This document shows, one piece after another, positions 2,328 through 64,000 of a stretch of 64,000 nt of DNA. Positions within the stretch are counted from its first letter, which is position 1; every line of letters begins with the position of its first letter. The DNA is taken from assembly GCA_010093605.1 (NCBI GenBank), contig MU004197.1, positions 434,001-498,000 on the forward strand. The letters run 5' to 3'. Below the pieces are notes generated by a model, which worked only from the letters and a program-made list of their open reading frames with translations, was not told where the DNA came from and ran no database searches. The translations under genes and the position numbers were made by a program. This DNA is from Lophium mytilinum. Lineage: Eukaryota.

Positions 2328-2839
2328 TCAAGTGCCGTATCCAGCTTCCCCATGGAGCTTCCCACAATCCGTCTTGGTGCATATGCCACGCTTCCTATGA
2401 ATCTTGCACGCCTTGTAATGGCATCGAAGACGCGCTAACTTGCAAGGATCGCAGGGAAAAGCCCCATCGCAGCCTTTGCCGAGTTGGTGGCAGCTAACGC
2501 AGCATGGCTTCCGATTGGCATAGGGTTCGAAAGCCTTCTCAACGACTGGTTGGGATTTCGGTCTGTATACGAGATCCGTACGAAGGTTATAGGCGCGAAG
2601 ATTGTCATTCTCTTCCACCACACCATTGACATCCCCGATCATCGTTTCTCGGACGTTCTTGAGGACATCGTTCTCGATGCGCTAGAAGGGAACCTATATT
2701 AGCTTGAGGAAAGTGGAATGTGTGAGAGGAACCATCTAACCATCTTCTCCACCGCCTTGCGCAGTTCTGCGTTTTCAGCGACAGCATCTTCATACTTCTT
2801 GTTGAGAGCTTGGAATTCAGAGTGGGACAAGTTGGCCAT
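2328..2839 (-). CDS. Small orphan protein (~150 aa): coiled coil + Zn2Cys6 cluster + CCCH finger; one intron 2682-2740
   Basis: ATG at 2839 (MANLSHSEFQALNKKYEDAVAENAELRKAVEKM); GTTAGA...GCTAAT...TAG intron splices in frame to RIENDVLKNVRETMIG; C-x2-C-x6-C-x5-C-x2-C-x6-C then C-x8-C-x4-C-x3-H; homologous to ORFs at 58533 and 63315. Confidence 0.7.
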
Positions 2840-3133
2840 TGTGAATGGATGGACGAGGATACTCATGGTTGTGAAAAGCTGATGTGAAGAGGAGAAGATA
2901 AGGACAAGGTCTTGAGGCTAAGTAGTTGAGATAGGGCATGTGGCCTTCTGCCAAGACTGGACCTCAGACGTGCGTCATGAATCTGTATTCCCTTCTCGTG
3001 CGTTAGCTCTGGAAGCTTCACTTTCACCTCACTTACTCTCCATATTCCACAAGTAAGTCTCACCACCAACATTGTCTATCCATATACCCTAACACGCATC
3101 CATCGACGGAAGTCTAAATCCTCATTCCTAGAC

Positions 3134-25149: not shown

Positions 25150-25520
25150 ACCCAGCTTCTTCTAGCGCATTAAGAACAAGGGCATTAAGATTGTCCAAGA
25201 AACAATAATTGGGGATAGTATTGCTATAGTAGAAGAGAATAACAATCTTTACGCCTATATTAGTTGTACAGAGCTTGTATATAGACTTGTATCCTAATAG
25301 GTTATTAAGAAGGCTTTTAAACCCTATGCCGATCTGAAGCTATACTGCGTAAGTTGCTACTAATATAGTAAAGGCTGCGATAGTTTTCCCTATACATGAG
25401 CGGGTCTTTTATACTAGCACAAGGTATGCAAGATTTATTAAAAGCGTGGCATATGCACTAAGAATAATTGTAGGAAGCTTTATAGGGCACGCTATATATA
25501 TAAAAAATATGTAAAGATGG
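25150..25520. other. TpA-rich, probably RIP-mutated relic
   Basis: Local AT enrichment with dense TA/TAG/TAA, no ORF. Confidence 0.45.
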
Positions 25521-44960: not shown

Positions 44961-44973
44961 ATCCGCTCTATCA

Positions 44974-46112
44974 TCAGATGCCCAACCTCGCGCCTCCATC
45001 TACGCCCCGTTAGCCACCCATTCCAGACCATGCAGACACCAAAGAGGAACGACTCACCAATAATCACATTCTCCCCCGTCGAGTAGCTCGCCTTCGCTAA
45101 GTACAAATACGCCTCAGCGATATCCTCTGGCGTCGCTACGAAGCCCACCGGCAGCTTCGTGTTCGCAAACGTTTTCTGCTGCTGCTCCTCGCTCTGTCCT
45201 AGCTTGCCCCACAGCTCTGTCCTCACGAGTCCGGGGGTCACGACGTTGACTCGGATCCCTTTCTCGGCAAGGTCACCGGCTAGGCCTTTGGTCAACGAGA
45301 TGACGCCCCCGTTGAGCCCGCTGCCAGTCGCGGCGCCTTTGCCGGGCTTGAGGGCGGCAGTGCCGGAGGTGAGGGTTAAAGAGCCGCCGCGGTTGATGAT
45401 GTTGTGTTTCTTGACCGCTGGAACGAGACCTGTTAGCGCTGACTACCTACCTATACCTCGCGGACTGTAAGTCGGCAAAGATAGAAGAGAAGTAGAACAA
45501 AAAGGTACGATAACAAACGGAACAAGCATAGTAGCCGAAGAAGAATAAGAAGCATGGTAGAATAAGAAAGTAGAAAAGAAGTAGAAAAGCAGTAGAAGAA
45601 GAGTATGGAGAAAATCACCACCCACCCTTCCCGACCGTCACAGCCCCCCAAAACTTCACGCCAAAGAGATGTTTCGCATTCTCGAGATCCAGATCCTCTA
45701 GCGCCCCGCGGATGATTTTATCCACGCCGGAAAACACTACATGATCGACCGGCCCTAGCTTCTGCAGCAGTGCGACGAATGCGGCTTCATCGCGCACGTC
45801 ACCGACTTCACCAGAAGCATTAGGGGAGTCGAGGCGTTTGACAGCATCCTTGACGTGGTCTTGGTTGGATGAGATCACCGTGACTTTGGCGCCGGCGTCG
45901 AGGAAGGCGGAGGCGGCGCCGAAGCCGATGCTGCCTCGGGGGGTTAGTAGATATTTTGGGAGAGTTTAGGAGAAGAAATCTAAATTTGAACCACACTGAT
46001 AGGTTCTACATGGTAGATGATAAATTGATTTAGCGGCGAGAGGTACGTACCCAGATGTCCCGCCGACAACGATGACGGACTTGCCAACGAGTTTGTCTGC
46101 TGATTTGACCAT
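44974..46112 (-). CDS. Short-chain dehydrogenase/reductase; 3 introns, one with a CT-rich low-complexity expansion
   Basis: MVKSADKLVGKSVIVVGGTSG|IGFG, VKFWGAV, GSLTLTSG, IRVNVVTPGLVRTELW, YSTGENVII|DGGARLGI*. Confidence 0.88.
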
Positions 46113-46578
46113 TTTGGGCGGCGCGTTTCTGTGTTAGCTAATTGTTGGGAGTGTATATTCAGAGGGGGTGGGCCGTGAGTGCTAATTATTTATGGTCGCT
46201 GAGGTTGGTGATGGCGGAATGGGTGATCTAATTTACGCGATTGAGGTTATGGCGTCAAACCCCGCAGGGATTTGAAATCAACCATCGAGACATAGGTTGA
46301 CGATATGAAGGTGATTTATTGTGTGTTTTCTTTTTCAAAGGGAGAGGTAGGTATGTCATAGCGTAACGAAGCTGACATTCTCGTCGTTGGTGTGCTAGTC
46401 ACGTGTCTAGGGCCTGACGTAGAGCATGCAAAAGACTAATGTCTAAACAAGGCGTCATGGGCTAAAATCATCTTCTCATTCTTCTTCCTGTCCTTACGGC
46501 TGGAAATGAGGGGTTAAATCGACGTGCGGAAAGCTATTTCAAGTTACGCTTAGCACAGATAAGTCACGTGCTCTTCAT

Positions 46579-48432: not shown

Positions 48433-48987
48433 TCTCGCGTCGGGGAAGGTTAAGACGAAACACTACAGCTTCAACATGCTGGACAGAACTTGTTGAAGTA
48501 GAGGAGGCTGAGGAAAAGAAGACGCGATGTCGTGATATCGCGGCGGAATAGCGGTGGTTCGCAGGATTATACCTTATTGCACCACCTGCCGTAGTTGGGA
48601 TAGCGTTAAGTCTAGCGAGCGATACTAGAACGACTATAGCTTACGCCCGGCAAGCCCTGCCAGAACCGGTGAAGTTAGAGTATGGCGTAGCCGTGATTGG
48701 ATGAAGTCGAGAAAATGGCTTGAATTAGTTACTCGCAATTTTTTTCGGGCGAAACGAAGGTGCGGTCAAGCTTAGTTATATGTTAAATATGCTTTCGCAC
48801 GAAAGATTTGAGAAATATATTATTGGTAAAAAGGCGAGCTCTTTTAGAGCTCTAGTGACCGAAAGCGAACCTTCCGTAAAGCTTGCGAGACTAGAAATGC
48901 GAGGATGACCGAAATGAGTAACCGTACCACGCAACTCCACACCCTCTACCACCCACTCTCTACAAAGGCAACCCCCAACAAACCCCT

Positions 48988-50847
48988 TTAAGCAGACCAA
49001 CGCCCGTCACGCCTCTCTTTGCCCTGCTTAACAACCAGCGACCCATACCCATCCGTGTTCGTGTTGAAAATAGTGGGGCAGTTCGCAGTCGCCTCAACAC
49101 TAGCCAAATTTCCCTTCACCGCGCCAGCACAATTCCCCTTCGCCTCCTTCCCGTTACTCCAGCAGAGCCACTGCCCTGCAGCCGGGATAGCTTGGCTCTT
49201 CTGTAGCTGCGTTGGGGCCTCAACCAGCGTAGCCGCCATGCCAGCCGCAAGATGCCAGTCGATGTGACAATGGAAGAACCAAACGCCAGGGTTGTCAGCT
49301 CTGAAACGCAGCACGAAGTAGCCTTTCGCGGGTACGACTGCGACGTCGCGTTTCATTGGTATAGTAGGGAAGTTCTTAGTGTTGCCATCCCAGACACCAG
49401 TGCCACGGGCAACGACTTGGTACTCGTGACCGTGCATGTGCATTGGATGAGGGTGCGACTCTGGGTTCGTGAGCACGATCTCGATGATACTGTTGGCAGC
49501 GAGGACGGAGGCGGCGGCACCGATACCGTAGGTTGCGGGGTTATTGGCATCGGGCCCGGTTGTGAGGGCTGTGTACAGAGAAGGTACTTCGGGCTCAACC
49601 CAGGGTTGTTGGGCAAGAGAGATACTGGAGGTTGTCAGTCTGGGAAGAAGTTTGGAGAGAATCAACGCATACCGTGATCCAATACCAGGATAGTTCTTCT
49701 GATTGATGTACCACTTGATTTTCTGATCCGGTGCTCCTAGTAACTTCTGGCCATCGAGTGGCTGCAGGGTAAAATCATCGAGAGTCGTGGATGGGGACAG
49801 TGAAGGATTGGAGATGACGGAGCCAAGCATCGGTAAAATGACCCCTCCCGACTTGTAGAGACATTTTCCGGTGTAGTCCGTTTTGAAGCCAGATGGAACT
49901 GAGTCGAACATATCGGTCGCCATCTTCACCAAGTACCCGACACTGTTCTTTGGGTTCGCCAAACCTTGAATCACGATATCGTAGCGTTGTCCAGCGCAGA
50001 TGGTGATGGCCGATGTTGTCTTTGGAACGACTGGGATATCGGATTAGGTTACTTGAGCCTTTTGATACACTGATGTAATGGAACTTACCGTGAACGCCGT
50101 CAATGCCAACAACCGTTATATCGTGGTTTTCTGTGAAGTTTGAGTACTTCAACCGCGTTGTTGAACAAGGGACAGCTTACGGAACTGAATGGACGAGCAG
50201 GAGAGAGCACCCATATTGACGATCCTGAGTAGGTATTTCTTGCCGGGTTCGAATGTGATATCCGGAGGCGTGGAGGAGTCATTGACCAGCATAGAGTCTG
50301 GAATGGGGAGAACGCCTGTAGGGTTATCAGGGCTCAAATACTTGTGCAGCAGCACGGGCATCTGTTCATGATACCAATCAGAGACGCTGAAATGAACTTG
50401 TTCATCAACTCCAAGGCTCTTCTCCCATGCTGGGTCGTGCACAATCATCTGGCCACGGAAACCGTCGGGGTATTGTCCTTTGTCATGGCTATGATACCAG
50501 AAGGTTCCGGCTGGGTAGGCCGTGAATTGGTATGTGTACTCGCCACCAGGTGGAATGGAGCACTGCGATACACCGACAGGGCCGTCGGAGGGACTAGTGC
50601 CAACTTGAAGCATGCCGTGGAAATGAATGGACGTGGTCTCGTTGCCGAGGAGGTTCCTGGCTTTCACAATAACGGTGTCGCCCAAGTCGGCCTCGATGAT
50701 TGGAAGGGGCCATTGCTTGTTCATGGCGATGACAGGACGCGAGAATCCATCTGGCGCAGCATTGACCCAAGTAATGTCGAAATTGTACGTGACAGTTTTA
50801 GCTAGACAGCTAACGAAGAAAGCAAAGAAGATAAGGATCGAAGACAT
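48988..50847 (-). CDS. Secreted multicopper oxidase, Fet3/Abr1-like, no C-terminal TM anchor; 3 introns
   Basis: Signal peptide; HFHG, WYHSH, HPMHMHGH, HCHIDWHLAAGM copper motifs; GQYPDGFRG. Confidence 0.92.
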
Positions 50848-52319
50848 GGTTGAAGCCAGCAAACGAGAAAAGAAAGGAACAAAACGAGGTGCGATGTGAG
50901 AAAAAACCAAGCCTACAAGATCACCATGCAATTTATACCCCATTATCCCATTCCCTCAGTCCCCCCCATCGGCGATTTCCTGGCGCCGTTGACGGCATCT
51001 CTCCGGTCGTCAAGAGGTAGAGCTGAAGAATCCACCAGCAATAGCAGGCAAGGCGTGGTTAGCAGTAAGGCCAAGTTCCATAAGAAATATCGCGGCGAGG
51101 GCGAGCAAAGCCACATCCAGGAACCGGAAGGGACTGCGGCGAAGGATATGCCATGGGGATCCGTCATAGGAAGCCCCATGTCACTAGGGCTCACAATGCG
51201 TTTCTGGTAATTGGGCCATGGGTCGAGACATGCAGGTTGGGTGCAGAGATTCAATCTCCTTGGGACGAGGTACAGCATGCATCGGAAACTGAGACCGCTG
51301 CACAGATGTCTGTGCTTCCGATGAGGATCTTGAGTTACCACGGAGAAGAAAAGAAGACGTTGGATTGGTTCCGGGAAGTTTAAATCAGTAGCCGAGAGAG
51401 CGGCAAAAGATACCTGCGTCATGTTGAGTACCACAGCACGGCCTAATGCTGCGGCTCTGATTAATTTGGGCATCCTGATGGTTTGGTAGCGAATCCTGTG
51501 TTCCGTGAAGGACCCGATGGCGGGATGGGTCATTGAGTCTACATCCTTCGATTGGTGGTGCAAGATCGAGCAACTGGATTTCCACGCAAGGAAAAAAAGG
51601 CGACAGCACAAAATCAAGCTTTGGGATAAGCCTTTCCAGGTATATGGATGAGATGGATGAGATGGCGGAGATGGCGAGGAAAGGCGTTGATTAGTTCTCG
51701 TCGCGCGTCTCGGGAGGGGCTGCGGAACCGGGCCGGTCCAGCTGCAGATGCGCTTCAGATCTCATATTCCCGAAGACCCTGACAAGTCAACCTCACGTTT
51801 TTGACGTTGTGCATCTCGCCGATTGATTTTCAAGTCGGGGCCTAGATCATAGTGGGACAGTGGATAGGGCTTGATACCCAGCCGGCGGGATTGTTGCGCG
51901 GAGGTCGCAGCCACGAGCTGAATGTGAGCATTGGAGCGGACGAGTTGCGGAAAATCCGATGCGAATCTGCAACACAGCTCTTTGGGAAGCACCGATGCAA
52001 GAGGAGTGCTCGAAAGAGTTTAGGAGATATGCCTCTGTTTACAGGCACGCGTGTACGCGTCGTGATCCCCTGCGTCATAGATCAAGTTATGTCCGCTAAT
52101 CCCGCTGCCAACTTTCCACTGAAGCAGCAACAATACCCAGGAACTATCCTTATACTATACCAGATATGGGATAGAAGCTAGGTTAGATCAACGCGTCAGA
52201 AAGCTTAGGATTCCGGCTACCGATCTTTCTGCGTTTTATCTCCTGTTCCTCTCAACCTTGTCGTATCGTACATTCTACCCTGAACCAGGGCAACCACAAC
52301 ACTCACAAGCCTCGTTACA

Positions 52320-54057
52320 ATGGTAGCCTCGCGCCACAGGGAGCTCACCTCGGCCCCTTCATATAGGAATACTGACAAGTATGACCGAGACGATGTGGAA
52401 GATGGTCGCAAAGCGTCGTCGCGACTACGCTTCCGAGATGCCATCGAAGCCACCATCGACATGCAAAGAGCGAAGGAGTTCAAGCAAAAACTCATTGATG
52501 GGATCAATCATGACGAACTAGAAAGCTATCGAAAAAGTGATGAAGAGGTTGGAGCCGTTTACATTCGGATGTCTGCGACTACTAACATAATCGCAGCTAA
52601 AAGATATCAAGAATAAGAAAGTACGCCATTTTTACGAAGACCAAAACGAACGACTTGACGATTGGATGGAAGTCGACACAGTCGTTAGGACGTTGGCGGA
52701 CGATGTTGTCGACAGCATGAACCCACGCGATCTGGATCACGACGGCGTCGCCGAGGCCGGAGGTCCGCTCCAAGGCAGCGGAGGAAACGTGGAATGTTTC
52801 TTGCCCGATGAAGTGCGCGAGAAAAGGCGGAAAGAAGCGCGGTCTGCGAGATTGGCTATCAATGTGAGACAATCTCCTTTCGGGCAGACCCACGTGACGT
52901 CCACTCACCCTTTCAGATCAATGTCGTGGCAAACATTCTTCTTCTGGCTGCCAAGTGCATTGCGGCTGGCTATTCTTCATCCCTTTCGCTCATTGCGTCT
53001 CTCGTCGACTCAGCTCTAGACCTGCTGTGCACGCTGATAATATGGAGCACGAATAAGCTGGTGGCTTGGAAATTGAAAAGCTTGAAGACCAAATTCCCGG
53101 TGCGTTGCTCATATATAACATTGACTAATAGTACACTGGATTAACGGGCGTTCAGGTTGGCCGACGTCGATTAGAACCAATAGGCATCCTAGTTTTCTCC
53201 ATCGTGAGTTCTTATTCCCGGCTTCCGAGACATGCGCTTATACCGGTTGTCAAAGATTATGGTCATTTCATTCATGCAGATTTTGGAAGAGTCTTTTGAG
53301 CAGTTACTCCCTAGTGGAAAGCACAAAGTGACTCGGCTACCGCCAGTTGCCATTGGCGCTATGGTCAGCACGATCGTTGTCAAGGGCATCATTTGGTTCG
53401 GCTGCATCCGGGTCAAGACCACCCAAGTTCAAGCACTTGCGCAAGGTAAGGACTGCCAGATCTAATATCTTTATTCGATGTTGATGATATTCCCAGATTG
53501 CAAGACCGACGTCTTCTTCAACACCCTCTCCCTTCTCTTCCCAGTGATTGGCTACCAACTCGATATATGGTGGCTTGATCCCGTGGGAGCCGCGCTATTG
53601 TCTCTCTTCATCATCTTCGATTGGGGCAAAACGTGCTTCGAGAACGTTTCGCGTCTCACTGGAGTCGCTGCACCGGAACGCATTGCTCGAAAGATGATGT
53701 TTCTGGCCTGGAGATTCGCTCCCGTGGTTGATGGCTACAAAGATGTGAAGACTTATCACGCCGGCGATGGAGTTTGGGTTGAGATGGACGTTCTGCTCGA
53801 TGAGCAAACACCGCTCAGGAAAGCGCATGACGTGGCAGAAACTTTGCAGTATTGTTGTGAAGGTCAGCGATGATATACTACTGAATTGCGACAAAGCTGA
53901 CGTGGAGTTCCTAGGTCTCGGAGAAGTAGATCGGGCGTTCGTATCTATGGATTGTATGTTCATATCATTTCCTTTCTTTTCTTACCTACGAAATCCCAAG
54001 CTTACAATTTTAGATGCATTTCAGGGCCCTTCTGGACACGCTACGGAAAATATCTAG
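52320..54057 (+). CDS. Cation diffusion facilitator, Mn-CDF (MTP8-11-like) clade; multiple introns
   Basis: FYEDQNERL, ASLVDSALDLL (TM2 DxxxD), FPVGRRRLEPIG, AQDCKTDVFFN (TM5 DxxxD), WWLDPVGA, EVDRAFVSMD. Confidence 0.92.
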
Positions 54058-54105
54058 ACACGTAGTAGTTGTAAAATATCTAGACACGTAGTAGTTGTAA
54101 AATAT
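54047..54105. repeat. 26-bp perfect tandem duplication spanning the CDF stop codon
   Basis: aaaatatctagacacgtagtagttgt x2 plus partial. Confidence 0.9.
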
Positions 54106-55623
54106 GTACTTATTACTCTTTAACCATTTATCGGGGCCCAAAAGAGAAGGCGAATTCATATTTCTTCGCTAGGATTCCACTTTTGCGCGCTGCGTTCCTG
54201 CCTTGAGATCTTTATGTGGACAAGGTGAGCTGCTCCTTCTCTAGCAAGCGCGCCTCTCCTCCTAAAATCTCCACCCTGCCCTTGGGAATACCTCGCTACG
54301 TTCCATCAACGCTCGGCCATCCTCAGCTCTTCCATCCTAGCTGCTATCGCTCAAGGCTCCTCCGAAATCAGCCTCTGGTACAGCATCACCTCCAAACCGA
54401 ATCGTTCTTGCAAATCTGAACTCCGTCCCAAACTCGCCACGATTCCGCAATGATTATACCATTTTGGTGGCGCATTCGCCTACATAGGATTACGAAACGG
54501 GAGGAAGCTTTTGCTAGGAGGAGGAGAAGGCTTCAAGTCCAGGTACGTGCATATCCAACCCGGTCAACCCTGTTTTGACTTAGATTGGCACCTGGATTAG
54601 CCTTGATTCTCAGAAAGCAATCTTAGAGATCAATCTGAAGTTCCTACAAAGCTAACTAAAACGTGTAGGCGGAATGTCACCAACGAGACAACGTTCATTA
54701 CGAACGAAACTACGGTGATCACAGGTTACGGTCGTCTCCCAAGCTGTCTGGAGAGCTCCGAGTTCGAACACGAGGCGCGGCCAACCACCGACCATCCGAG
54801 TACTTTTCTGTTTCCGCATGGTGAAATTGGGGGCCTACGTTTGCTGGCATAAGGAAGGCAACATTCTGGTCAACGACGGCTGGGATTTCTGGAAACCTGT
54901 AGTCTCATTCGATGACCTGGAGCGAGTAGGATTTTGTGGAACCCTTGCCGTTGTTTCCCTACCTAAGTTCTTCCTATACCTCATTCATTGGGTCGACTCT
55001 TCAAACCTTCAATGCAATGATTCAAAATTCCAGAAAGCATCACGTGACCAGTGTTCATGAGCGCTTAGTCATCTGAATCTCAACCTCATTCCTCAGCTCT
55101 CCGCCTTTCCTTTCATCTCAGATCCAACAACACAGCTATCATACTCCCTGGTTTGGGTAACATCTCTTCACTTGTGAACTGTCTTCTTCCCTCTGCCGGT
55201 TTCTGAGAGAAATATCTCCACATACAAGGGGTTCCAAGTGGTGAGTCACTCCCGCGATTTGTTCTCCACAAAGCGCAGCCACATTCGTATATGTACAACT
55301 TCTCTCCAGAAAGAGTTTAAAACATTCTTGAAATGCTACAAAGCATTCTGTGCATTGCGATGACTCTTCGATATCCCGGCAAGCTGAAACCCGGATCAGG
55401 AGTAGTGCCATGAACCTTGCCTAGTAAAAGTGACCTGGAATACACAATATCAGCCACGAAGCTGTCTGGTTCTCTATAAAAGCTCATAAAACATCCTCCG
55501 TTTAATATTCGTAACATCTCGTCTCCCAATCTCTAACCCTGCTTCATTTCTCAGGAATCTAAATCCTTCTTATCCACCCCATCAACCTCCCAACCCATCC
55601 CACACCTCGCCCACCCCATCAAC

Positions 55624-56697
55624 ATGGCTCCCCAAATCACAACAGCAGAGGACCTAGAATCATACATCACCGCCCTCACCGCCACCGGCATCCCAACCGA
55701 GCCCTACAAATCCATCGACCTCCTCACCGGCGGCACCGCAAACTACGTGTGGCGCCTGACGATGCACTCCGGCGGCACTGTCATCGTCAAGCACGCCGAG
55801 CCCTTCGTCGCCTCAAACCCCTCTATGGCCTTCCCCGTCAACCGCATGGACTTCGAAGCCCGCGCGCTCCACTCCCTCCCACCCCTCCTCCTCGCCGCCG
55901 GCGCCCCCGCAAGGGTCCAGCCCGTCCCCCTCATCGAGTACGTCGCAGCCGACCACATGCTGTGGATCGCCGACGGCGGCCCGCGGCACCTGAAAGACGC
56001 GTATAGCGATCCAGCACTCGATGTGCCGGCGCTGGGTCGCGATATCGGAACGTGGCTCGCGACCCTGCACCTCGCGACGGCGTCAACGGATATCGGCGAT
56101 AATCGGACGGGGAAGTTTATCTATAGACACGCGTACCGCAATCTGCACACCGCGTTTGAGAAGTTTGGGTTTGATACGGCGTTGGCGGAGAAGGTGGATG
56201 CGGAGTTTGGGGCGCTGCTTGCGAGCGATGATGAGGTGGTTTGTCATGGGGATTTCTGGCCTGGGAATGTTCTTGTTGCGGATGATGGCGGGTTGACGAT
56301 CGCGGATTGGGAGATGGTGCGGAGGGGGTGTGGGGCGACGGATGTGGGGCAGTTTGCTGCGGAGGCGTTTTTGCTAGATCGGTTTAGGGGGTGGAGGGGG
56401 TTGAGGGGGGCCTTTCTTGGGGCGTTTATGCGGGCGCGCGGAGGGAAGGTGGATAAGGGGCTTTTGAGAAGGGTAGCGGTACATTGGGGTGTGCATATTG
56501 CGTATTGGCCGACGAGGGTTGAGTGGGGAAATAAGGAGGAGACGAGGGAGCTGGTTGCGATTGGGGTTAAGGTGCTGACGCAAGTGCTCGAGGAGGATTG
56601 GGAGGGGCTGGTAAAGGGGGAACTTTTCGATGGTCTCGAGGGCGTCTCGGACTTGTTTCGAAGATCCAAAGTCGATGTTGAGGTTCAAGTGGTGTAG
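55624..56697 (+). CDS. APH/choline-kinase-like small-molecule phosphotransferase (methylthioribose kinase/PsiK-like fold), intronless
   Basis: LTGGTANYVWR, IVKHAEP, RMDFE, HGDFWPGNVL Brenner motif, DWE, DVGQF. Confidence 0.88.
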   Translation: MAPQITTAEDLESYITALTATGIPTEPYKSIDLLTGGTANYVWRLTMHSGGTVIVKHAEPFVASNPSMAFPVNRMDFEARALHSLPPLLLAAGAPARVQPVPLIEYVAADHMLWIADGGPRHLKDAYSDPALDVPALGRDIGTWLATLHLATASTDIGDNRTGKFIYRHAYRNLHTAFEKFGFDTALAEKVDAEFGALLASDDEVVCHGDFWPGNVLVADDGGLTIADWEMVRRGCGATDVGQFAAEAFLLDRFRGWRGLRGAFLGAFMRARGGKVDKGLLRRVAVHWGVHIAYWPTRVEWGNKEETRELVAIGVKVLTQVLEEDWEGLVKGELFDGLEGVSDLFRRSKVDVEVQVV

Positions 56698-56819
56698 ATC
56701 AGACTACCTCTTGACCAGATGGCTGCTCAGCAGCCAGGCTACCCCCTACGATGGCGTCAGGTGAGCAGTACTTGAGTCAATCAGTGATGAATTCGTGTGC
56801 GCAGACTTTTAGTCTTGCA
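56693..56819 (+). repeat. 127-bp direct repeat copy 1 (others at ~56920-57046 and 58194-58320)
   Basis: tgtagat..gactacctcttgacca.atggctg.tcagcagccaggcta.cccctac shared by three copies. Confidence 0.85.
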
Positions 56820-57080
56820 CTGTAGAAATAAAAAGTTTGAAGTTTACCGCTTGTCGCCACTGCTTAGGGTACCCCCACAGGAGTTCAAAGATTCAAAGGC
56901 GATGTCAAATTCTAAAAAGTGCAAATTACGCTGCCTCTTGACCAAATGGCTGGTCAGCAGCCAGGCTAGCCCCTACAGTGGTGTCGAGTGAGCAACATTA
57001 GAACCAGGTAGTGAGAGATTCCGGTGTTATGGAATATCAAAGATCTCAGGAGGTTCTTTTTTACGGAGGGTGATATAGTC

Positions 57081-58190
57081 TGCATGGCTTTTGACATCTT
57101 GTCTTAATGATTTTGCGCCTTTAGGGGCACTCAAACGGTAGCATCGGCGTTTCAGAACTAACCCTAATCGAGCGTGATCCATACCTCTATGCGATTCCAG
57201 TGTTGTAGGAAGCTGCTATGCTCCGTGACCTAATACACGATGCGAGGCTTTTGACATCATGTCTTAATAATTTTGGCCTTTGTCAGGGCACTCAAACAGT
57301 AGTATCGGCATTCCTAAACTACCCCCAATCGAGTCTAATCCGCATCTCTATGCGATTCCTGTGTTATAAGAAGCTGCAATGTTCCTCGACGTAATATACA
57401 ACTCGAGGCTTTTAACATCGTCTCTTAATGATTTTAAGGCTTGTAAGGACACTCAATAAGTTGCATCGGCGTTCCAAAACCACCCCCAATCGAGTCTAAT
57501 CCACATCTCTATGCGATTCCAGTGTTGTAGGAAGCAGCTATATTCCGCATCCTAATATACAATGCGAGGCTTATAACATCGTGTGCAATAATTTAGGGCC
57601 TTACAAGGGCATTCAAACGGTGGCATCGGCGTTCCAGAGCTGCTTGCTATGGAGTGTAATCGGCATGTCCGCCTAAGTTCAGTCCCGTAGAAAGCTACTT
57701 TTGGCCCCAAGGTGATATGCGCTGCATAGCTGCTGACTTCGTATGTCCATAATTTAGAGCTTCCTGAGGGCACTCAAACGGTAGCATTGGAGATCCAGAA
57801 CTGCATGCTATGGAGTGTAATCGGCATGTCCGCCTAAATTCAGTCCTATAGAGAGCTGATTTTAGCCGCAAAGTGATATGCGCTGCGTAGCTTTTGACTT
57901 CGTATGTCGATGATTTAGAGCTTTTTGAGGGCACTCAAACGGTAATATTGGAGTTCCAGAGCTGCATCCTATAGGGTACAAACGACAGGTCCGCGTAATT
58001 TCATTTCTGTATAAAGCTTCTTTTGGCCACAGACCCACATATGCTTTTAGCTTTTAACTTCGTGTTTCGAAAATCTGGAGCTCTTTGAGGGCACTCAAAC
58101 GGTAGCATTGGAGCTCCAGAACTGCGTTCTTTGATGTCTAATACGTATCCTGGTGTAAATGAGGTCCCCTAGATAGTCTTAAGTTTCAAG
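57081..58190 (+). repeat. Degenerate satellite, ~160-161-bp unit, 7 copies
   Basis: Core GGGCACTCAAACGGTAGCAT near 57125, 57286, 57446, 57607, 57768, 57929, 58089. Confidence 0.92.
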
Positions 58191-58193
58191 CAG

Positions 58194-58320
58194 TGTAGAT
58201 TTGACTACCTCTTGACTAATTAGCCGCTTAGCAGTCAGAGTACCCCCTATAGAGATGTTAAGTAAGCAAAATAGAAGCCGAGTATTGATAGATCTGTGTA
58301 CCTAGACTTATAGGTCAGCA
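58194..58320 (+). repeat. 127-bp direct repeat copy 3, RIP-like mutated
   Basis: Colinear with 56693-56819; CA>TA and TG>TA substitutions (gacca>gacta, ctcag>cttag, gtgag>gtaag). Confidence 0.8.
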
Positions 58321-58532
58321 GTCCATGAGTTCACCAATCAAGATTTAGTATCATTTGCATAGGATATTGGAATCATTGTTCATTTCTAGCTCAGAGAGAG
58401 GGGCTCCCTAGGCTTTTGTGCACCTGTTTAGCACCGTTTGAGGTCCTCTGGCACGTTATCAGACCCCGGAAAACAACAACATTGACACCGCTCATAGCTC
58501 ATCGGGCCACCTCAGACGTCGTCAATGCTCCA

Positions 58533-59393
58533 TCAATGCAACACCTTCTCCTTTCCGATAGACATGGCCATGCCGGCATCTCCGCAGTCGTAGCCCTCTT
58601 CGTTATGTACGAGATTGCAGTTCTTGCGCGTACAGCCATGGACGTAGTTGTGGTGAGCCTGGCATTGCTGATAGACGCAACGGCTGTTGGCTTCGGTACA
58701 GTGGCCGCATTGAACGCTACCATCGCAGACTATCCTGTCCTTGTAGCATAGGATGCACCTGAGCTTGCGGCCGGTGGGTGGTTGGCTGGCGACATTGTTG
58801 TAGTTGTCGTGAATGCTCATTGCCTCCAGCTGAGAGATAGCCTCTGGTACGAGTCTGGTGATAGCCTTGAGCTTCGCGTCTAACGCCTTGCTCTTTTCCT
58901 CCTCGGCACGAAGCTCGTTGTCGCGGGTGCCGACATACTCGGCGACGTTTCTCTGGAGCTCGTCGTGATCCTTCTGCAAGGCTTCGTACTTCTTGTGAAG
59001 CTCCATAGCCAGCTTATGTTGTTCTCTGAGCACTACAAGCTCTTTCTGCTGCGTCGAGATGCATCGCTCGCGCACTTCCGCAGTGCCTTCGGCCCAAGCG
59101 AGAAGCTCCAAAGCCTTTTTCTGTTGTTCCCTGAGCACAACAAGCTCTTTCTGCTGTGTCGAGATGCATCGCTCGCGCACTTCCTCAGTGCCTTCAACCA
59201 AAGCGAGATGGCGGCTTGCCACTTTGGCGACACATGCGTTTCGATCAGAATTGCTCTTCAGTACTTTCCACACAGGGTTCTGCATGCCGCCAATCTCTGC
59301 AACTTTCCAGAGGAGCTCCTGTTCCTCCATCGTCAAATAGTAGTGAATCTCTCCACACCCCTCGCAGTGAGTCTTGGGGTACTGATAAGTCAT
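58533..59393 (-). CDS. Orphan family member: N-terminal CxxC..H Zn site, coiled coil with 35-aa duplication, Zn2Cys6 + CCCH at C-terminus
   Basis: 286-aa intact ORF; CILC-x6-C-x5-CGHC-x6-C then C-x9-C-x4-C-x3-H-NEEGY. Confidence 0.75.
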   Translation of the reverse strand: MTYQYPKTHCEGCGEIHYYLTMEEQELLWKVAEIGGMQNPVWKVLKSNSDRNACVAKVASRHLALVEGTEEVRERCISTQQKELVVLREQQKKALELLAWAEGTAEVRERCISTQQKELVVLREQHKLAMELHKKYEALQKDHDELQRNVAEYVGTRDNELRAEEEKSKALDAKLKAITRLVPEAISQLEAMSIHDNYNNVASQPPTGRKLRCILCYKDRIVCDGSVQCGHCTEANSRCVYQQCQAHHNYVHGCTRKNCNLVHNEEGYDCGDAGMAMSIGKEKVLH

Positions 59394-59419
59394 CGCGACA
59401 GTCGGTGTTTGACTCGATG

Positions 59420-59744
59420 GTGGGTCGAGGTTGAAGTAGGCGTCGTGTGCGCGGCGACGTTGGTATTGCAGTGGGATCTCGCAGGAGTGGAGATGGAGTC
59501 CAGAAGTTTGGAGAGTGACTAGAGTGATGAGAGGAGAGTGACTTCGTAGCTGCGCGTGCTACTAGTTTGGTGTTGAAGTAAGGTACTCGCTGTGGGTCAA
59601 GGTTGAATTGGGCGGTCTTGTGTGCGGCGACGATGGTGTAGCAGTGAGGTTTCGCAGAAGAGAAGATGGAGCTTTGAAGTCTGGATACTGATGAGCGTGA
59701 TGAGAGGAGAGGGGTTTCGGAGCTGCGCGTGCAACTGCTTTGGT
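59420..59744. repeat. ~172-bp diverged tandem duplication upstream of the 58533-59393 gene
   Basis: tgggtc.aggttgaa at 59421 and 59593; tgatgagaggagag and agctgcgcgtgc in both units. Confidence 0.8.
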
Positions 59745-61200
59745 CTTGTAGTGAGGTGCTGCAAGTGGCGCGTTGAGCTCAAGAGCTTGGAGCTTGGAGC
59801 TTGACAAAGTCGGCAGGCGTTATTTCACAGGCGATCGGAATAGGCTTTTCCCGATATGACGTCACTGCTGAGAGAGTCGAGTTTTCGGTAGTGCTGATAT
59901 AGCTGGAGCTGAGCGAGGTGAAATCGTCAACGCCATAACCCTAGGCCATGGAACGTGAAGACTTACGCTTAACCTAGCAGACTCCACCTTGGCTTCTACT
60001 CAGATATGCCTGGCCTTCCCCTGTACGCCGTTTGACTTGGGAGAAACGGTTAGTTCGTGGTATAGGTGGAAGTTAACGGGATGTCACCTGAACCATCGCC
60101 AGGCACGCGCAAGTCACGTGCTCGCCAACTCTTTAGCGCCTTGGCGACAATCTACTTCCAATATTAGACTCGCCTCTCTCGCAACTCCGTCCTTCCTCCA
60201 CCCTCCTCCATCAACTTTCGACCTTCTTCCTCTCCTCGGCATGTCACATTTATGGACCTTTTTTCCTTTCTTACTTGATGCTTCATAATGGCCGGCTTAT
60301 GTAGAGATCAGAGCTCCGTCGAATGGCACCGCCTCAAAGACTGAGTGTCCCGGCACCTTGCACTGATTTGGCCCGGGTAAGGCACTCCGTACTTGGCCGA
60401 ACCATTGGAGAACTCCTCACACCTTTCACTGTTGTTTTGAAGCCTCTCAAGTTCTCGCGCAACATCATTCGGTTCTTCTCGTAAGCGGCCCATTCTTCTG
60501 TGTTTGGGGGCAACAGACACGGGAGTTTGCAGTCGCGGGATTTTCACGTTTTGCAAGGGATTGCGCATCCAGCCGGAGGCTTTCCAGTGGCATGTCTCTA
60601 CTGCCATAACGATCAGGTCGGGAGGTGGTTGATAGTCCCCTGCTGCGACACACCAGAAGGATGGTGGCGACACTAACAAGACTTTCACGTAAGTAGTAAA
60701 GGATCTGCCTTCTCTTCGTCTGCGATGTTGCTAATTTCCCCTCACTACCTTAGATCTTCAACTTGAACCAGGTAAGTGTTCCTCCAGTACATAGTTCCTC
60801 TGTCTATAATACATGCTGTTATCTTTAAACTCATTGAATCTTCTCTGCAATGTGATTGTATGCTGGCAGGCCTTCCGGTCAGTGAAACTTGTGTCTTCTC
60901 AGTTTCACTTGTTGATTCACGTCATAAACTCATAGCCGTGATCAGCATTATTGATTGACACGCACGCGCTCCAAGATTCTACCATGCGCAGCTCGACAAA
61001 GCGCGCCTTTAACAGAAAAGAATCGTTTCAAAGGTCAGTCACGAGGCTCAAAGTTGAGATATGTGGATGCATTTTGAATTTCTTAAGTCTAGTGTATAGT
61101 GTGTCATCCATGCCTTTGTCCTGTCTATCAGAATCCTGAGAAGCAGCTCAGGAACGCTGCAGGACAGCCACATCGAGAAATCTGTCCACCAACTCAGAGC

Positions 61201-62037
61201 TCATCCCAGTCTGTCAGCTATATCAGCATCAGAAGTCCTACTTCCCAGGGCTTGGGATAACATCTTGTCGGGGGCAAGAGTCTTTGGGCGAAGGCCAGCT
61301 ATGTGAGGAGCGGCCTGAGGGTAGCCTGGAGAGGCCGCTGGGGGGCGTGAGAGGGGATGGAGCGCGGACCGGACAAGAGGAGTAGAAGTAGCCTGCGCAG
61401 TGATGTTTGGCATTGCGGACAGAAGTGAAGACCGCGCGGTAGGATGGCTAGCTGGCAGAGCTGTGGGGTCGAGGCCCTGGCGGTAGTTGGCCGCAGAGAT
61501 GACGCCAGGCACAGCCAACTCTTGGAGAGATTTGATATCTTCCAGGGCAGATTGGTGAAGTTCGACAAGGGCCTGATGACCTTGGACAAGGCTCCCGAAG
61601 CTTTGGAGAAGGCTCCCGAGGCTGGATCTGAGCTCTCTGACTTGTCTCTGGTAATACTGTATCGTGGCCTCATCCTCCTCGGCTCCCCGATTGTTGTCGC
61701 GGGCCTGCTGGCGCATTGCTGATACCCTACGTGCCTCCGTCGCGGATGCGAGGTCGAATTGGTTCTCGAGGTTCTCAAGGTTCGCAAAGTGCCTGGCTTG
61801 GTTGGCCATCTCGGTGGCAAGGCCTTCCATCTCTTTCTCTCTGTATTCCGTTTCGAGGCGATCGCCACACTCGCAGAGAGTTCGATGGTTAACGAGGAGA
61901 CGCTCTTCCAGCTCGTTGGCTTCTTTGTCCGAGTTGGCTGCTCGGATTCCTTCCAAGAACTCGCCAGTGCTCGTTAGCTCAGAAAGGCGTCCATCGCAGT
62001 GCCTACACACCCCAGCTTCAGGGCGCTCGTCCGACAT
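61201..62037 (-). CDS. Orphan coiled-coil protein with N-terminal CxxC...H-x3-C-x-C putative Zn site and P/S/A-rich tail
   Basis: ATG 62037 MSDERPEAGVCRHC...HRTLCECG; long heptad-rich segment; long uninterrupted ORF. Confidence 0.55.
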   Translation of the reverse strand: MSDERPEAGVCRHCDGRLSELTSTGEFLEGIRAANSDKEANELEERLLVNHRTLCECGDRLETEYREKEMEGLATEMANQARHFANLENLENQFDLASATEARRVSAMRQQARDNNRGAEEDEATIQYYQRQVRELRSSLGSLLQSFGSLVQGHQALVELHQSALEDIKSLQELAVPGVISAANYRQGLDPTALPASHPTARSSLLSAMPNITAQATSTPLVRSALHPLSRPPAASPGYPQAAPHIAGLRPKTLAPDKMLSQALGSRTSDADIADRLG

Positions 62038-63314
62038 CTTTGGAAGAGTTGCAAGGGATTGGCTAGGTTTGCAGCCGACGAATACAGGACCTTGCCGGTG
62101 GATGGGTTCTTGAGGAGGGGAGGTGTAGAGAACCTGGAGCAAAGAGGACTTGACGGCGGGGTTACTTCACATTTTCTTTGGCGCAACCTGGTCTAGTGAA
62201 TCAACTATGCCAGGTCAGGTGACATGGCCGAGCTTTGCCGCCAGTGCCCAGCAAAATTCAATCATCGGTTCCTCATCACACCTTTCTCTCTTCTCGACCA
62301 ACTTCTTTTTGCCCCCCACGCCCTTGTTTCCTCACTTCTCTGGGGGCAGTTGATGACCTTTATAGAGTCAGCTGTTCTCCCTTCTTTGGGAACAGCTGAT
62401 GATCTTTACAGAGTCAGCTGTTCTGCTCAGCACTAGTTGCGAAGGGCAGTACGTCGATCTCCTTAACGGTTTCGAACCGGGAGAGGCGTTTCGGGGTTTG
62501 TCGATCTCTAAAACGGTAGCGAACCGGAGAGACGCGCTTTGCGTTGATCTCCTCTCGGTGGCTGGACGGAGAGGCCACTCACAGCGACGCAGATCTCCTA
62601 ACGCTCAGTCCCTTGGAACGGTCGCAGCCGGAGAGGCTCTTCTCCTGCCCGGACTTCTTTTCGCTGCCTCGCAAAACGAGTGGTCTGTGGCTATCTCCTC
62701 AATAATTGGGTTAACTTCCTTCTTTCTCTGCGCAGCGACAGACGAGGATGCAAGGGCGCCTGAGAGGTCACAGTTCCTCCTTTGCATGGGGCTAAGCTGC
62801 CTTCGTTCTTCGAAGTAGCTTTCCCGCGGCATCGCCGTGTCCTTCGAATACTGCCGCTGTGTTCAAGGTTTTTCGCTGACTAGGTAAGTCAGGTATGTTG
62901 TCCCTCCCCCCCCAGCGCCGAGTTCGCACTTCTTCGCAGTGCTGGGGACCAGTAGCCTTCGGGCAAAGCTAGGACGAACTCATCTTGTATACAATTCACA
63001 ATCAATCCTCTACGTTCAAATATATCTGCCTCCTTGAGGTGATTTGGTGATGTCGTGATGTTTTTATTACTCGACCAGCGACGCCTGTGTTTCTCAATGC
63101 CCTCTTAACTCTTCGTGCTTCTAATCTCTAATAGCGCCTTACAACTTACATACTCCGAAGCTCATCCGACCATCTCCTCAGCGCAGGCAACAAATACCCC
63201 GCAACCTTTGATACACCACCTGGGTCCACACCTTCTACGCCACGAAAGCATTCTCCATCACTCTACATCCATCTTCGGATTAAGAACGATACCTACACAA
63301 TCCTTCACCCCAAC

Positions 63315-63911
63315 ATGCTTTCCTTCTCCACCGCCTTCTGTGGCGCCTGCGGTCAAACCCACTACGACATCTCCTCAGAGGCCGAGGTGAAGCTCTGGAA
63401 AGATCTGGAAGCTGCCAATGCCTCCGCCGACTCCCGCGCCGTCTCCGCCATCATCGCCATTCTCCGCGATTGTTCCGCGGCCAAAGACTGCCATGCCAAA
63501 CACACTATCCATCATGCGATCAGGCTCGAGGGTGAACGCATGAAGCTAGAGCAAGAGACGTTCGACCTGAAGGTGGAGATCAAGGATCTAAAGAAGGGAA
63601 ACGAGCGCCTCCCCAACGAGCGGTTTGATGGGCGGATGGAAAATCGAGACTTGGGCGGGAAGAAAGAGATGCTGGTTGGCGAGAAGGAGGAGGCGTCTCT
63701 GCCACGGAAACTGGTCTGCCAGGCCTGTTGCGAGAGCTCTGGAACGCGAAACAGCTTGTGTGATGGGAGGTACCCGTGTACCGAGTGTATGGCACAGGGC
63801 TATACGTGCTTCTACAAGAAGTGCTTCAAGACACGCAGCGGTGTTAGATGTAAAAGCTCTACGTGTACAATGTGGCACGGCGAGGAGGGGTATAGACATG
63901 GCGAGTTCTAG
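63315..63911 (+). CDS. Orphan family member: N-terminal Zn site, coiled coil, Zn2Cys6-like + CCCH
   Basis: 198-aa ORF; CGACGQTHY..E..LWK; CQAC-x10-C-x5-CTEC-x6-C then C-x8-C-x4-C-x3-H-GEEGY. Confidence 0.75.
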   Translation: MLSFSTAFCGACGQTHYDISSEAEVKLWKDLEAANASADSRAVSAIIAILRDCSAAKDCHAKHTIHHAIRLEGERMKLEQETFDLKVEIKDLKKGNERLPNERFDGRMENRDLGGKKEMLVGEKEEASLPRKLVCQACCESSGTRNSLCDGRYPCTECMAQGYTCFYKKCFKTRSGVRCKSSTCTMWHGEEGYRHGEF

Positions 63912-64000
63912 ACGGGGGTAGGACGTGGTCGTTGGTACGGGGACTATACAAACTGGATGTTGGGTAATTTGCAGCCCCAAACTCTACATAGTTCCGTTCG

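Follow-up and report, generated by a model that had tools for sequence, protein, structure and literature searches.

Among fungal transcription factors, zinc cluster proteins form the largest class, and nearly all of them share one plan. The window, by which we mean the whole 64-kb stretch of DNA analysed here, encodes three small proteins that do not follow this plan, and it raises the question of what genes A, B and C are and whether they belong to ordinary or to mobile DNA. As set out below, the three proteins belong to a real and conserved protein family of Dothideomycetes that is as yet uncharacterised.

Gene copies and overall architecture

On inspection of the window, genes A, B and C were all found as intact open reading frames at the places originally predicted (Table 1). 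Their C-termini share the motif R-K-x-x-C-x2-C-x6(10)-C-D-G-x3-C-x2-C-x6-C-x-Y-x2-C-x8/9-C-x4-C-x3-H-x-E-x-G-Y, in which all ten module ligands are retained. A six-frame regular-expression scan of the whole window returned the Zn2Cys6 spacing three times, always inside A, B or C. When a family HMM was run against all stop-to-stop ORFs of at least 40 aa in the window, the same three were recovered (E 3e-19 to 7e-18) and no fourth intact member was found, the next best match having an E-value of 0.15. An N-terminal CxxCGxxHY...LWK...C module is present in B and C only. Thus, the regex and HMM searches bear out the original prediction of three intact reading frames with a common Cys/His C-terminus, the N-module HMM confirms the N-terminal module ascribed to the two longer copies, and the coil strings quoted at the time were found in the proteins.

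The original list of copies was correct as to the three intact genes and has to be amended in two respects. On the sequence, the ATG at 2866 is the more probable start of gene A, which would then span 2328-2866 with one intron and encode 159 aa. Furthermore, a fourth, degenerate copy had been missed, in which the last 7 nt of the presumed gene A intron are still present. This copy is 72% identical to gene A 2348-2688 over 341 nt, and its GC content is 36% vs 52% in the gene A counterpart; 54 of the 83 substitutions read C>T or G>A when going from gene A to the copy, as compared to 4 in the opposite direction. It is dispersed, lying 23 kb from gene A in inverted orientation. Gene B is flanked by tandem repeats.

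Table 1. Positions of genes A, B and C, their parts and the degenerate copy in the window
Feature	Position	Strand	Remarks
Gene A exon 1	2741..2866	-	42 codons; holds LNKKYEDAVAENAELRK coil; in-frame join to exon 2 computed
Gene A intron (inferred)	2682..2740	-	59 nt, GT..AG, phase 0, CTAAT branch-like site
Gene A exon 2 + stop	2328..2681	-	family HMM E 6.7e-18
Gene A composite Zn2Cys6-CCCH module	2331-2519	-	within exon 2
Gene B	58533..59393	-	286 aa, single ORF (= P0003); family HMM E 2.9e-19
Gene B N-terminal C-x2-C-x3-H-Y ... C module	59214..59375	-	~residues 7-60; N-module HMM E 8e-22
Gene B in-frame tandem duplication	58997..59206	-	105 nt (35 aa x2), in coil region; units 89% identical
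Gene B C-terminal composite Zn2Cys6-CCCH module + tail	58536..58775	-	motif, profile matches, domain model
Gene C	63315..63911	+	198 aa, single ORF (= P0001); family HMM E 9e-19; whole-protein model mean pLDDT 84.5
Gene C N-terminal C-x2-C-x3-H-Y ... C module	63330..63503	+	N-module HMM E 7.7e-27
Gene C C-terminal composite Zn2Cys6-CCCH module	63696..63908	+	first loop x10, not x6
Degenerate copy of gene A exon 2	25159..25487	+	pseudogene fragment, in-frame stops, RIP-like C>T / G>A changes

In all three proteins (159-286 aa) the cluster lies within the last 65-80 residues, with the coil upstream of it. The model of gene C has a helix at residues 40-113, whose best structural neighbours come from the coiled coils of myosin and lamin (Z 6.9-7.6); profile matches of the coil region in the PDB are SMC and GCN4 coils, and a crude heptad scan marked a heptad-like segment at residues 15-61 of gene A. 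The coiled coil predicted ahead of the module is therefore upheld as a long helix or coiled coil, and this helix probably forms a coiled-coil dimer. The N-module of gene C was modelled as a beta-hairpin plus helices (strands 6-9 and 14-17, helix 21-37, pLDDT 82-91). The overall order would thus be an optional N-terminal C-C-H-C module with one zinc, a long helix of variable length and the C-terminal Zn2Cys6-CCCH module. As predicted, no Fungal_trans-type regulatory domain was detected in A, B or C by the Pfam scan, and the canonical Gal4-type arrangement of N-terminal cluster, linker, short coil and large Fungal_trans region was not found in them.

The two halves of the C-terminal module

According to the structural models, a true, divergent Gal4-type Zn2Cys6 fold makes up the first half of the C-terminal module. 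The six-Cys spacing C-x2-C-x6-C-x5-12-C-x2-C-x6-8-C is fitted exactly by A and B, and by C with a first loop of x10. A profile of the three C-termini gave as top matches in the PDB solely Zn2Cys6 DNA-binding domains over profile positions 4-37 (Pho7 at E 6.5e-4, PUT3, LEU3). The domain model of gene B (pLDDT 86.4, pTM 0.70; pLDDT 90-97 over model residues 1-60), which contains no zinc, has helices at 8-13 and 24-28, each starting at a Cys pair. In the Foldseek search with this model, ranks 1-23 were all Zn2Cys6 domains (rmsd 0.8-2.5 A, every E >=0.07), among them PUT3 with a probability of 0.99 and an rmsd of 0.8 A over 30 columns. With VIA-align, ten of 48,161 PDB chains reached Z>=2, and all ten were Zn2Cys6 domains, with Pho7 as the best (Z 4.1, rmsd 3.3, 44 aligned). 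These scores are weak, with Foldseek E-values all above 0.001 and VIA Z-values all below 5, as is expected because the fold comprises just 30-40 residues. For residues 125-198 of gene C, the structure-atlas neighbours were Zn_clus clusters in 10/10 rows.

In a Pfam scan, A, B and C matched no family at E<=1, so that neither the Zn_clus (PF00172) nor the CCCH thresholds were reached. When 45 relatives were scanned, the full-module protein P0029 passed the Zn_clus gathering threshold of 21 bits with 22.5 bits, and P0010 (20.7), P0004 (18.3), P0017 (17.0) and P0042 (16.8) stayed below it; P0082 scored 34.9 bits but is without the CCCH half.

In Gal4-type clusters, basic residues between Cys2 and Cys3 contact CGG triplets, as seen in the Gal4 and PUT3 structures. 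Among the 28 modules parsed, this loop holds no basic residue in 3, one in 13, two in 7, three in 4 and four in 1, that is, 0-1 in 16/28; A has one, B two, and C one in a loop enlarged by a 4-residue insert. The position following Cys2 is aromatic or His in 25/28 modules. An Arg is found four residues upstream of Cys1 in 22/28, and the net charge is positive in 30 of 34 modules (median +4).

The cluster is joined to the CCCH finger by four residues, and the resulting module of ~60 residues ends in H-[DE]-E-x-G-[YFW]. The ligand pattern C-x8/9-C-x4-C-x3-H is present in A, B and C, and 21 of the 28 modules have an aromatic residue at +3, counted from the first CCCH Cys. For this half, Foldseek returned weak rows only (MBNL1, E 5.5; CPSF30, E 8.9), VIA-align gave no structural match at Z>=2 among the 48,161 PDB chains, and no PDB sequence match was obtained. 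Sequence comparison nevertheless showed the second half to be homologous to modules of relatives whose CCCH part passes a Pfam Nab2-type threshold. Some relatives carry 2-3 Zn2Cys6-CCCH modules per chain, and hhalign aligned the 34-sequence module with 19 modules of eight such proteins over 55 columns covering both halves (probability 98.5%, E 2.5e-15). The second halves of the tandem-module relatives P0011 (30.1) and P0046 (28.1) pass Pfam Nab2-zf4 (cut-off 20), and P0038 and P0103 are labelled 'C3H1-type domain-containing' by the source databases. Thus, the Zn2Cys6-CCCH module is shown to be one evolutionary unit, and the predicted succession of zinc cluster and CCCH finger at the C-terminus is substantiated by the PDB profile, the fold matches, hhalign and the Pfam matches of the relatives.

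Family and paralogues

Searching with a profile of the three C-termini, as the original prediction had proposed, yielded 97 matching proteins among 1.84 billion. Besides B and C, 25 of the 97 contain the full module, and every named one of these is from a Dothideomycete; the family extends over several orders of this class. The genes had been described as orphans, which does not hold in view of these relatives, some of which already bear source labels such as 'Zn(2)-C6 fungal-type' or 'C3H1-type domain-containing'. In an alignment of 34 sequences from many genera, with a mean column identity of 11%, all eight invariant columns are Cys, and conservation is >=90% at Cys1, at the Asp that follows Cys3 and at the His, in agreement with the Cys/His scaffold predicted to be the conserved feature.

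At least five further paralogues apparently lie on the contig of the window, giving at least eight genes together, and A, B and C are shown to sit in a local cluster among ordinary genes as paralogues that are old and have strongly diverged. Gene C alone among the three has a clear ortholog, which is 60% identical and found in Mytilinidion resinicola; identity amounts to 87% in the N-module (52/60 residues) and ~75% in the C-module, and the coil is variable with a 39-aa indel. The accession numbers suggest that the paralogue cluster is kept in both Lophium and Mytilinidion.

Function and relation to known systems

We consider, with a probability of about 0.5, that this Dothideomycete family of coil plus Zn2Cys6-CCCH proteins consists of small dimeric nucleic-acid-binding regulators, acting most likely on DNA. 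Dimerisation of the helix would place two basic zinc heads side by side, and the tandem-module relatives would reach the same valency with 2-3 modules in one chain. The heads would bind nucleic acid, most likely DNA, and since A, B and C contain no activation or regulatory domain, they may function as small repressors, competitors or adaptors in a way similar to that proposed for PacX.

It is unlikely, though worth serious consideration, that the module mainly binds RNA, with the Nab2-like finger reading single-stranded RNA and the degenerate zinc cluster serving merely as a structural platform; in that case we would be dealing with post-transcriptional regulators or RNA adaptors that derive their valency from the coiled coil or from tandem modules. 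The homology of the second half to fingers passing Nab2-type models, the aromatic residue at +3, the poorly retained DNA-contact residues and the weak MBNL1 and CPSF30 rows all point in this direction, as do the arrays of 2-3 modules, which are closer to multi-finger RNA binders than to Gal4-type factors with their one cluster per chain. However, A, B and C match no CCCH Pfam model, the second half lacks a structural match at Z>=2, and it is the Zn2Cys6 fold that is best conserved and best modelled, known members of this fold being DNA-binding according to the titles of all matched PDB entries.

Still less probable is a role of the zinc modules as protein-protein interaction sites or purely structural knots in coiled-coil scaffolds that make no direct nucleic-acid contact. 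The loss of the typical basic DNA-contact residues, the conserved acidic tail and the long coil, variable in length through in-frame duplications and indels, would suit such a role, and the Cep3 Zn2Cys6 domain sits inside a kinetochore complex (PDB titles). The positive net charge and the conserved Arg ahead of Cys1 argue against it, and each half has a fold of a class known for binding nucleic acids.

A more speculative reading, to which we attach little probability, is that the unit is a new nucleic-acid reader combining a duplex-DNA-type cluster with a single-strand-type finger, e.g. for DNA-RNA junctions, R-loops or nascent transcripts, and that the paralogue cluster functions in self/non-self or genome-defence conflict, not in ordinary gene regulation. 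Features tied to the conflict reading are the at least eight genes on one contig, their very fast divergence, coils changing by duplication and the RIP-scarred dead copy.

The original prediction itself saw in the genes a lineage-specific mobile family in accessory patches, be it as selfish-element passengers, conflict genes or accessory proteins of an element, and this we regard as very improbable. The many strongly diverged paralogues with a clear ortholog for gene C only, the dispersed, inverted RIP-like fragment, the tandem repeats beside gene B and a HET-domain gene in the window could be cited in its favour. However, none of the 107 window ORFs scanned (24 + 83) matches a transposase, reverse transcriptase or integrase, and no tRNA or Rfam match was found in the window. 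Apart from the gene A fragment, no repeat within the 64 kb links the copies and none brackets the genes; neither recombinase, terminal repeats nor a break in composition marks them as cargo, and GC is even (0.47-0.59). The neighbours are ordinary genes, those at 44-57 kb being covered by spliced RNA contigs. Because no transposon genes were found among these ORFs and base composition is even, the mobile and accessory character is unsupported, and the occurrence of the family in several orders, the gene C ortholog and the cluster apparently kept in Mytilinidion speak against it as well. The copy at 25159-25487 is clearly dead, which would fit a reading of A, B and C as functionless relics, decaying or without expression. 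This reading is hardly credible, as the three genes are intact with all ligands, these ligands are invariant across the 34 sequences, and in the gene C ortholog both zinc modules are retained at 75-87% identity and the linker has changed.

The family thus represents a zinc cluster reused in C-terminal position behind a long coil and fused to a CCCH finger as a unit, repeated 2-3 times in some relatives. As the window copies fall below the Pfam thresholds, standard transcription-factor counts in Dothideomycetes, among which are many plant pathogens, will for the most part overlook it or label it wrongly. Should the unit bind both DNA and RNA, or contact DNA in a non-Gal4 mode, the known range of the Zn2Cys6 fold would widen; otherwise this is just another small regulator family, and no long-standing question depends on it.

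With Gal4-type Zn2Cys6 domains (PF00172; Gal4, PUT3, Pho7, Hap1, Ppr1, Leu3) the family shares the C-x2-C-x6-C-x5-C-x2-C-x6-C spacing with its 'CDG..PC' core and the predicted fold, superimposing on PUT3 as given above. It differs in that the cluster of A, B and C is C-terminal, after the coil, without Fungal_trans, below the Pfam threshold and directly followed by a CCCH finger, in the aromatic or His residue instead of Arg after Cys2, and in the few basic residues before Cys3. With Nab2-type CCCH fingers (PF21803 Nab2-zf4, PF14608 zf-CCCH_2) the second half has in common the ligand order C-x(n)-C-x4-C-x3-H and the aromatic after the first Cys. Unlike these, the first spacer in A, B and C has 8-9 residues vs 6 in the tandem-module relatives, a Pfam match is lacking, and the finger stands four residues past a Zn2Cys6 cluster and not in an array of like fingers. 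A published census has a category for fungal proteins with a zinc cluster and another type of zinc finger; in the parts available to us it merges C2H2, CCHC and CCCH fingers and analyses factors with C2H2 and zinc cluster, and these parts describe no contiguous C-terminal module, coil, N-module or tandem arrays. A direct fusion of Zn2Cys6 and CCCH, and the tandem arrays of it in relatives, appear to be undescribed.

The reversed order of coil and cluster, on the other hand, had been thought unprecedented, and it is not, as PacX, Ume6p and Czf1p are cited exceptions to the usual cluster position (Bussink et al. 2015, PMC4832277). PacX of Aspergillus nidulans, whose structure was termed unusual, carries a coiled coil at its N-terminus and a zinc binuclear cluster at its C-terminus, with 221 of its 661 residues lying between the two; it is restricted to Leotiomyceta and genetically required for pacC repression (PMC4832277). 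By this described architecture A, B and C resemble PacX in having a coil followed by a C-terminal zinc cluster, and they differ from it in being 159-286 aa long, in occurring in multiple copies and in the CCCH finger after the cluster, which the passages seen on PacX do not mention (PMC4832277). None of the family proteins matched in the profile search carries the name PacX. By analogy, PacX offers the best model of the way in which a coil combined with a C-terminal cluster could work.

The Cys/His module of genes A, B and C

Three small genes of the window, A, B and C, end in the same module of about 60 residues, and their open reading frames, a six-frame scan and the family HMM bear out the original prediction of three intact copies. 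In the alignment of the three C-termini 18 positions are invariant, all ten Cys/His ligands among them. The Zn2Cys6 spacing occurs exactly three times in a six-frame scan of the 64 kb, each time inside A, B or C, and the family HMM detects these genes among the window ORFs at E ~1e-18, the next ORF following at E 0.15. Thus, the motif is not a chance match. For gene A, an in-frame join of the ATG at 2866 to exon 2 over the probable intron gives a protein of 159 aa. An N-terminal module (C-x2-C-x3-H-Y ... L-W ... C) is common to the two longer copies, B and C, as had been claimed and as was confirmed with an HMM of this module. Pfam searches of A, B and C yielded only sub-threshold coiled-coil noise, and no promoter words common to their upstream regions were found.

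Coordinates of the three genes and of the A-related fragment
Feature	Position	Strand	Remarks
Gene A, C-terminal exon	2328-2681	-	ORF
Gene A, probable intron	2682-2740	-	59 nt, GT..AG, presumed splice
Dead copy of A exon 2	25159-25487	+	repeat search
Gene B	58533-59393	-	286 aa
Gene C	63315-63911	+	198 aa

Two further ORFs were considered as family members and rejected, as neither has an N- or C-module HMM, Pfam or PDB match. BLASTP gave E 0.11. One of them, at 61201-62142 (-) between B and C, is not significantly similar to B and encodes 278-313 aa; it begins with CxxC...CxC, is helical in the middle and ends in low-complexity sequence. The other, at 3134-3553 (+), encodes 139 aa and lies divergent from A at a distance of 268 nt; it contains several pairs of Cys/His (CDTC..., CAEC...H.H...C.C), and its helical tail is very basic.

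The first half of the module is predicted to have the Zn2Cys6 fold, and its claimed identity was upheld by Foldseek, VIA-align and PDB profile searches. The top PDB matches to a profile of the three C-termini were Zn2Cys6 DNA-binding domains (Pho7 at E 6.5e-4, PUT3, LEU3), with LAC9, Cep3 and RSC3 next and all Zn2Cys6 matches confined to profile positions 4-37; a profile of the whole alignment matched mostly coiled-coil proteins, PUT3 and Pho7 recurring. The last 80 residues of B were modelled with AlphaFold2 from a 35-row alignment (mean pLDDT 86.4, pTM 0.70, pLDDT 90-97 over residues 1-60). When this model was submitted to Foldseek, ranks 1-23 were all Zn2Cys6 domains, with no E-value below 0.07; the match to PUT3 had a probability of 0.99 and an rmsd of 0.8 A over 30 columns. 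Of 48,161 representative chains compared by VIA-align, ten reached Z>=2, each of them a Zn2Cys6 domain, and the best was Pho7 (Z 4.1, with 44 residues aligned at an rmsd of 3.3 A); a repeat search agreed. For residues 125-198 of C as modelled in the ESM Atlas itself, Zn_clus clusters were found in 10/10 neighbour rows, and an Atlas search by features gave no usable match.

The CCCH identity of the second half was reached via relatives. In A, B and C themselves this half has no Pfam match and nothing at Z>=2 in VIA-align; leucocin A, its sole PDB sequence match (E 0.068), was discarded as a chance match. Eight proteins found with the profile carry two or three whole modules in tandem, and hhalign aligned the 34-sequence module with these 19 tandem modules at a probability of 98.5% and E 2.5e-15, over 55 columns across both halves. 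The second half in two of the tandem-module proteins lies above the Pfam cut-off of 20 for Nab2-type CCCH fingers (30.1 and 28.1 bits), and two single-module relatives carry the source label 'C3H1-type domain-containing'. Thus, sequence comparison argues for a unit in which only four residues separate a Zn2Cys6 cluster from a CCCH finger, in agreement with the proposed C-terminal fusion, and the unit evolves as one piece. In the tandem-unit proteins (P0011, P0016, P0021, P0022, P0033, P0040, P0046 and P0073), one of which is from Lecanosticta acicola, H-P-G-Q-[YW]-D follows each unit.

Coil, family and duplicates

In a model of the entire C protein (mean pLDDT 84.5), a beta-hairpin (6-9 / 14-17) contains the His and the first two Cys; two helices follow, at 21-37 and, some 74 residues long, at 40-113, and after them a disordered linker leads to the zinc unit. 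Foldseek found nothing at E<=0.001 for this model, and VIA-align found only long-helix look-alikes over residues 10-117, the best of which, at Z 6.9-7.6, were coiled coils of myosin and lamin. PDB profile matches to the coil part were SMC and GCN4 coils, and a crude heptad scan marked residues 15-61 of A, 120-182 of B and 66-94 of C. The coil is the changeable part of the protein: in B it contains an in-frame 105-nt tandem duplication (89% identity between units), and in C a 39-aa indel sets it apart from the ortholog. A 173-nt unit is also present twice (78% identity) at 59412-59757, from about 20 nt upstream of the B start codon, in the presumed promoter.

A HMMER search with the three-sequence profile against 1.84 billion representative proteins (E<=0.001) gave 97 matches. 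As the library has huge numbers of canonical zinc-cluster factors and only 97 proteins matched, the profile is specific to the family. By a strict regular expression the whole unit is present in 27 of the 97 (B, C and 25 others), where it is situated 6-52 residues from the C-terminus in proteins of 98-1249 aa; six more (P0005, P0013, P0023, P0034, P0041, P0050) have it with longer loops. Much of the remainder consists of Cys-rich proteins with several Zn2Cys6-like repeats. A separate short group (P0006, P0009, P0012, P0014, P0020, P0036 and others; 180-450 aa, 8-13% Cys) has four to seven canonical-looking Zn2Cys6 motifs in tandem per chain, which is unusual, since this domain normally occurs once per protein. 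A word-index search with a 32-sequence alignment gave three matches, fewer than HMMER, with Coniosporium uncinatum also appearing; with B it returned only B itself.

Organism names were looked up for 30 of the 97 proteins and fell into Mytilinidion, Lophium, Glonium, Diplodia, Aplosporella, Phyllosticta, Massariosphaeria, Didymella, Melanomma, Lophiostoma, Amniculicola, Alternaria, Coniosporium and Lecanosticta. All relatives named among these 30 are Dothideomycetes, three lineages having been checked in the taxonomy. With relatives in many Dothideomycete genera, the family is not the orphan it was thought to be. The HMM of the three C-termini supplied protein matches and a range among the 30 looked up, and copy number and flanks beyond the 64 kb come from protein records alone. 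According to these, five more Lophium mytilinum members (P0023, P0013, P0005, P0050 and P0010, whose accessions end in 299, 301, 302, 320 and 337) are on one contig of 1,605,038 bp; to judge from accession order, a stretch of a few dozen genes would hold at least eight intact members. In Mytilinidion resinicola a single 1.99-Mb contig carries four (P0002 and three with accessions that end in 216, 227 and 235).

The paralogues are mutually 24-46% identical, and a clear ortholog was found only for C, namely P0002 (60%). Between these two the N-terminal module is 87% and the C-terminal module about 75% identical, the coil being much less conserved. In an alignment of 34 sequences, where column identity averages 11%, eight columns are invariant and all eight are Cys. 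Paralogue divergence, module conservation and the Cys-only invariant columns therefore point to old duplicates whose zinc scaffold is under selection rather than recent mobile copies; such selection on the Cys/His residues had been predicted. In a tree of the 64-column module only C with P0002 is well supported (98), so that with these few columns the order of duplication is unreadable.

The A-related fragment matches A exon 2 and the adjoining 7 nt of the intron at 72% identity over 341 nt and contains in-frame stops. As the intron end is kept, it is a DNA-level duplicate of A. From A to the copy, 54 of the 83 substitutions are C>T or G>A, against 4 in the opposite direction; GC is 52% in A and 36% in the copy, and the TpA/ApT ratio is 1.36 in the surrounding 500-nt bin. 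The copy was inactivated through RIP-like mutation. It sits at the left edge of a stretch of about 9.5 kb (24800-34300) in which no ORF >=90 aa has a Pfam match and GC is slightly lower (0.44-0.51) than elsewhere in the window.

Surroundings of the genes

The window is ordinary gene-dense fungal DNA with genes for a CDK-like kinase, an S1/P1 nuclease, a luciferase-like monooxygenase, an alcohol dehydrogenase, a HET-domain protein, short-chain dehydrogenases, an amino-acid permease, a laccase, an APH-family kinase, a histone, Der1 and a cation-efflux protein. GC is even (0.47-0.59 per 2 kb), Pfam detected no transposase, reverse transcriptase or integrase in 107 window ORFs (24 + 83), and no repeats bracket A, B or C, the dead A fragment being the sole inter-copy repeat. 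The description of the genes as mobile and accessory is thus not sustained. Searches of the window gave no tRNA or Rfam family. The HET (heterokaryon incompatibility) domain gene (34356-35900, +; E 1.5e-19) shares the window with the paralogues.

Contigs of a single RNA run (X1), whose kind was guessed, were compared with 44001-64000, a range outside which gene A lies. At neighbouring genes (44-57 kb) they match perfectly, without a single differing letter, and leave out stretches bounded by GT..AG; X1 is therefore spliced RNA of the same organism. The bins 58675-60008, which take in most of B, and 63344-64000, at C, are without cover, which is uninformative either way on expression; depth is 18.7 in bin 58008-58674. 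Introns confirmed in neighbouring genes include 44167-44227, 44999-45058, 52545-52595 and 55239-55399 (ends GT..AG or CT..AC). A tandem array (57117-58176) lies between the gene of the APH family and B, on the side of the B 3' end; its unit of about 161 nt occurs about 6.6 times, with 60-84% identity between units. Several odd joints and loose ends of the RNA contigs fall at 56743-56999 and 58185-58234.

Proposed function and known systems

A, B and C have a long helix before a basic Zn2Cys6-CCCH unit and, as predicted, no regulatory domain; net charge is positive in 30 of 34 modules (median +4). The helix may form a parallel dimer presenting two zinc units together, and relatives with two or three units per chain might reach equal valency another way. 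The zinc units would bind nucleic acid, and as an activation domain is lacking the proteins could be small repressors, competitors or adaptors. We put the probability of a DNA-binding small regulator at roughly one half. Three observations count against a Gal4-like DNA contact: the Cys2-Cys3 loop has only 0-1 basic residues in 16 of 28 parsed modules, Cys2 is followed by an aromatic residue or His in 25 of the 28, and copy C has four extra residues in this loop. A serious rival is an RNA binder, for which the Nab2-like finger and the tandem arrays speak and which we regard as possible, if rather unlikely. A scaffold that makes no nucleic-acid contact at all is doubtful, next to the positive charge of most modules. 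Mobile or conflict cargo is highly improbable in these surroundings, and a relic, beside the selection suggested for the zinc scaffold, still more so.

No description of a conserved module made up of contiguous Zn2Cys6 and CCCH parts, of its C-terminal placement after a coil, of the tandem arrays or of the N-terminal C-C-H-C module was found in the literature (subscription journals aside) or in Pfam. The family is of moderate interest to fungal transcription factor research. Both module halves are known kinds of domain, and a census lists a merged class of 'Zn cluster + C2H2/CCHC/CCCH' proteins (PMC5415576). The reversed order that was pointed out originally has precedents: according to the PacX study, a zinc cluster nearly always stands at the N-terminus, and besides PacX the exceptions include Ume6p and Czf1p (PMC4832277). 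In PacX of Aspergillus nidulans, as described there, the coiled coil is N-terminal and the zinc cluster C-terminal, each is struck by loss-of-function mutations, and pacC repression needs PacX (PMC4832277). PacX is the nearest worked example for the coil and C-terminal zinc cluster seen in A, B and C.
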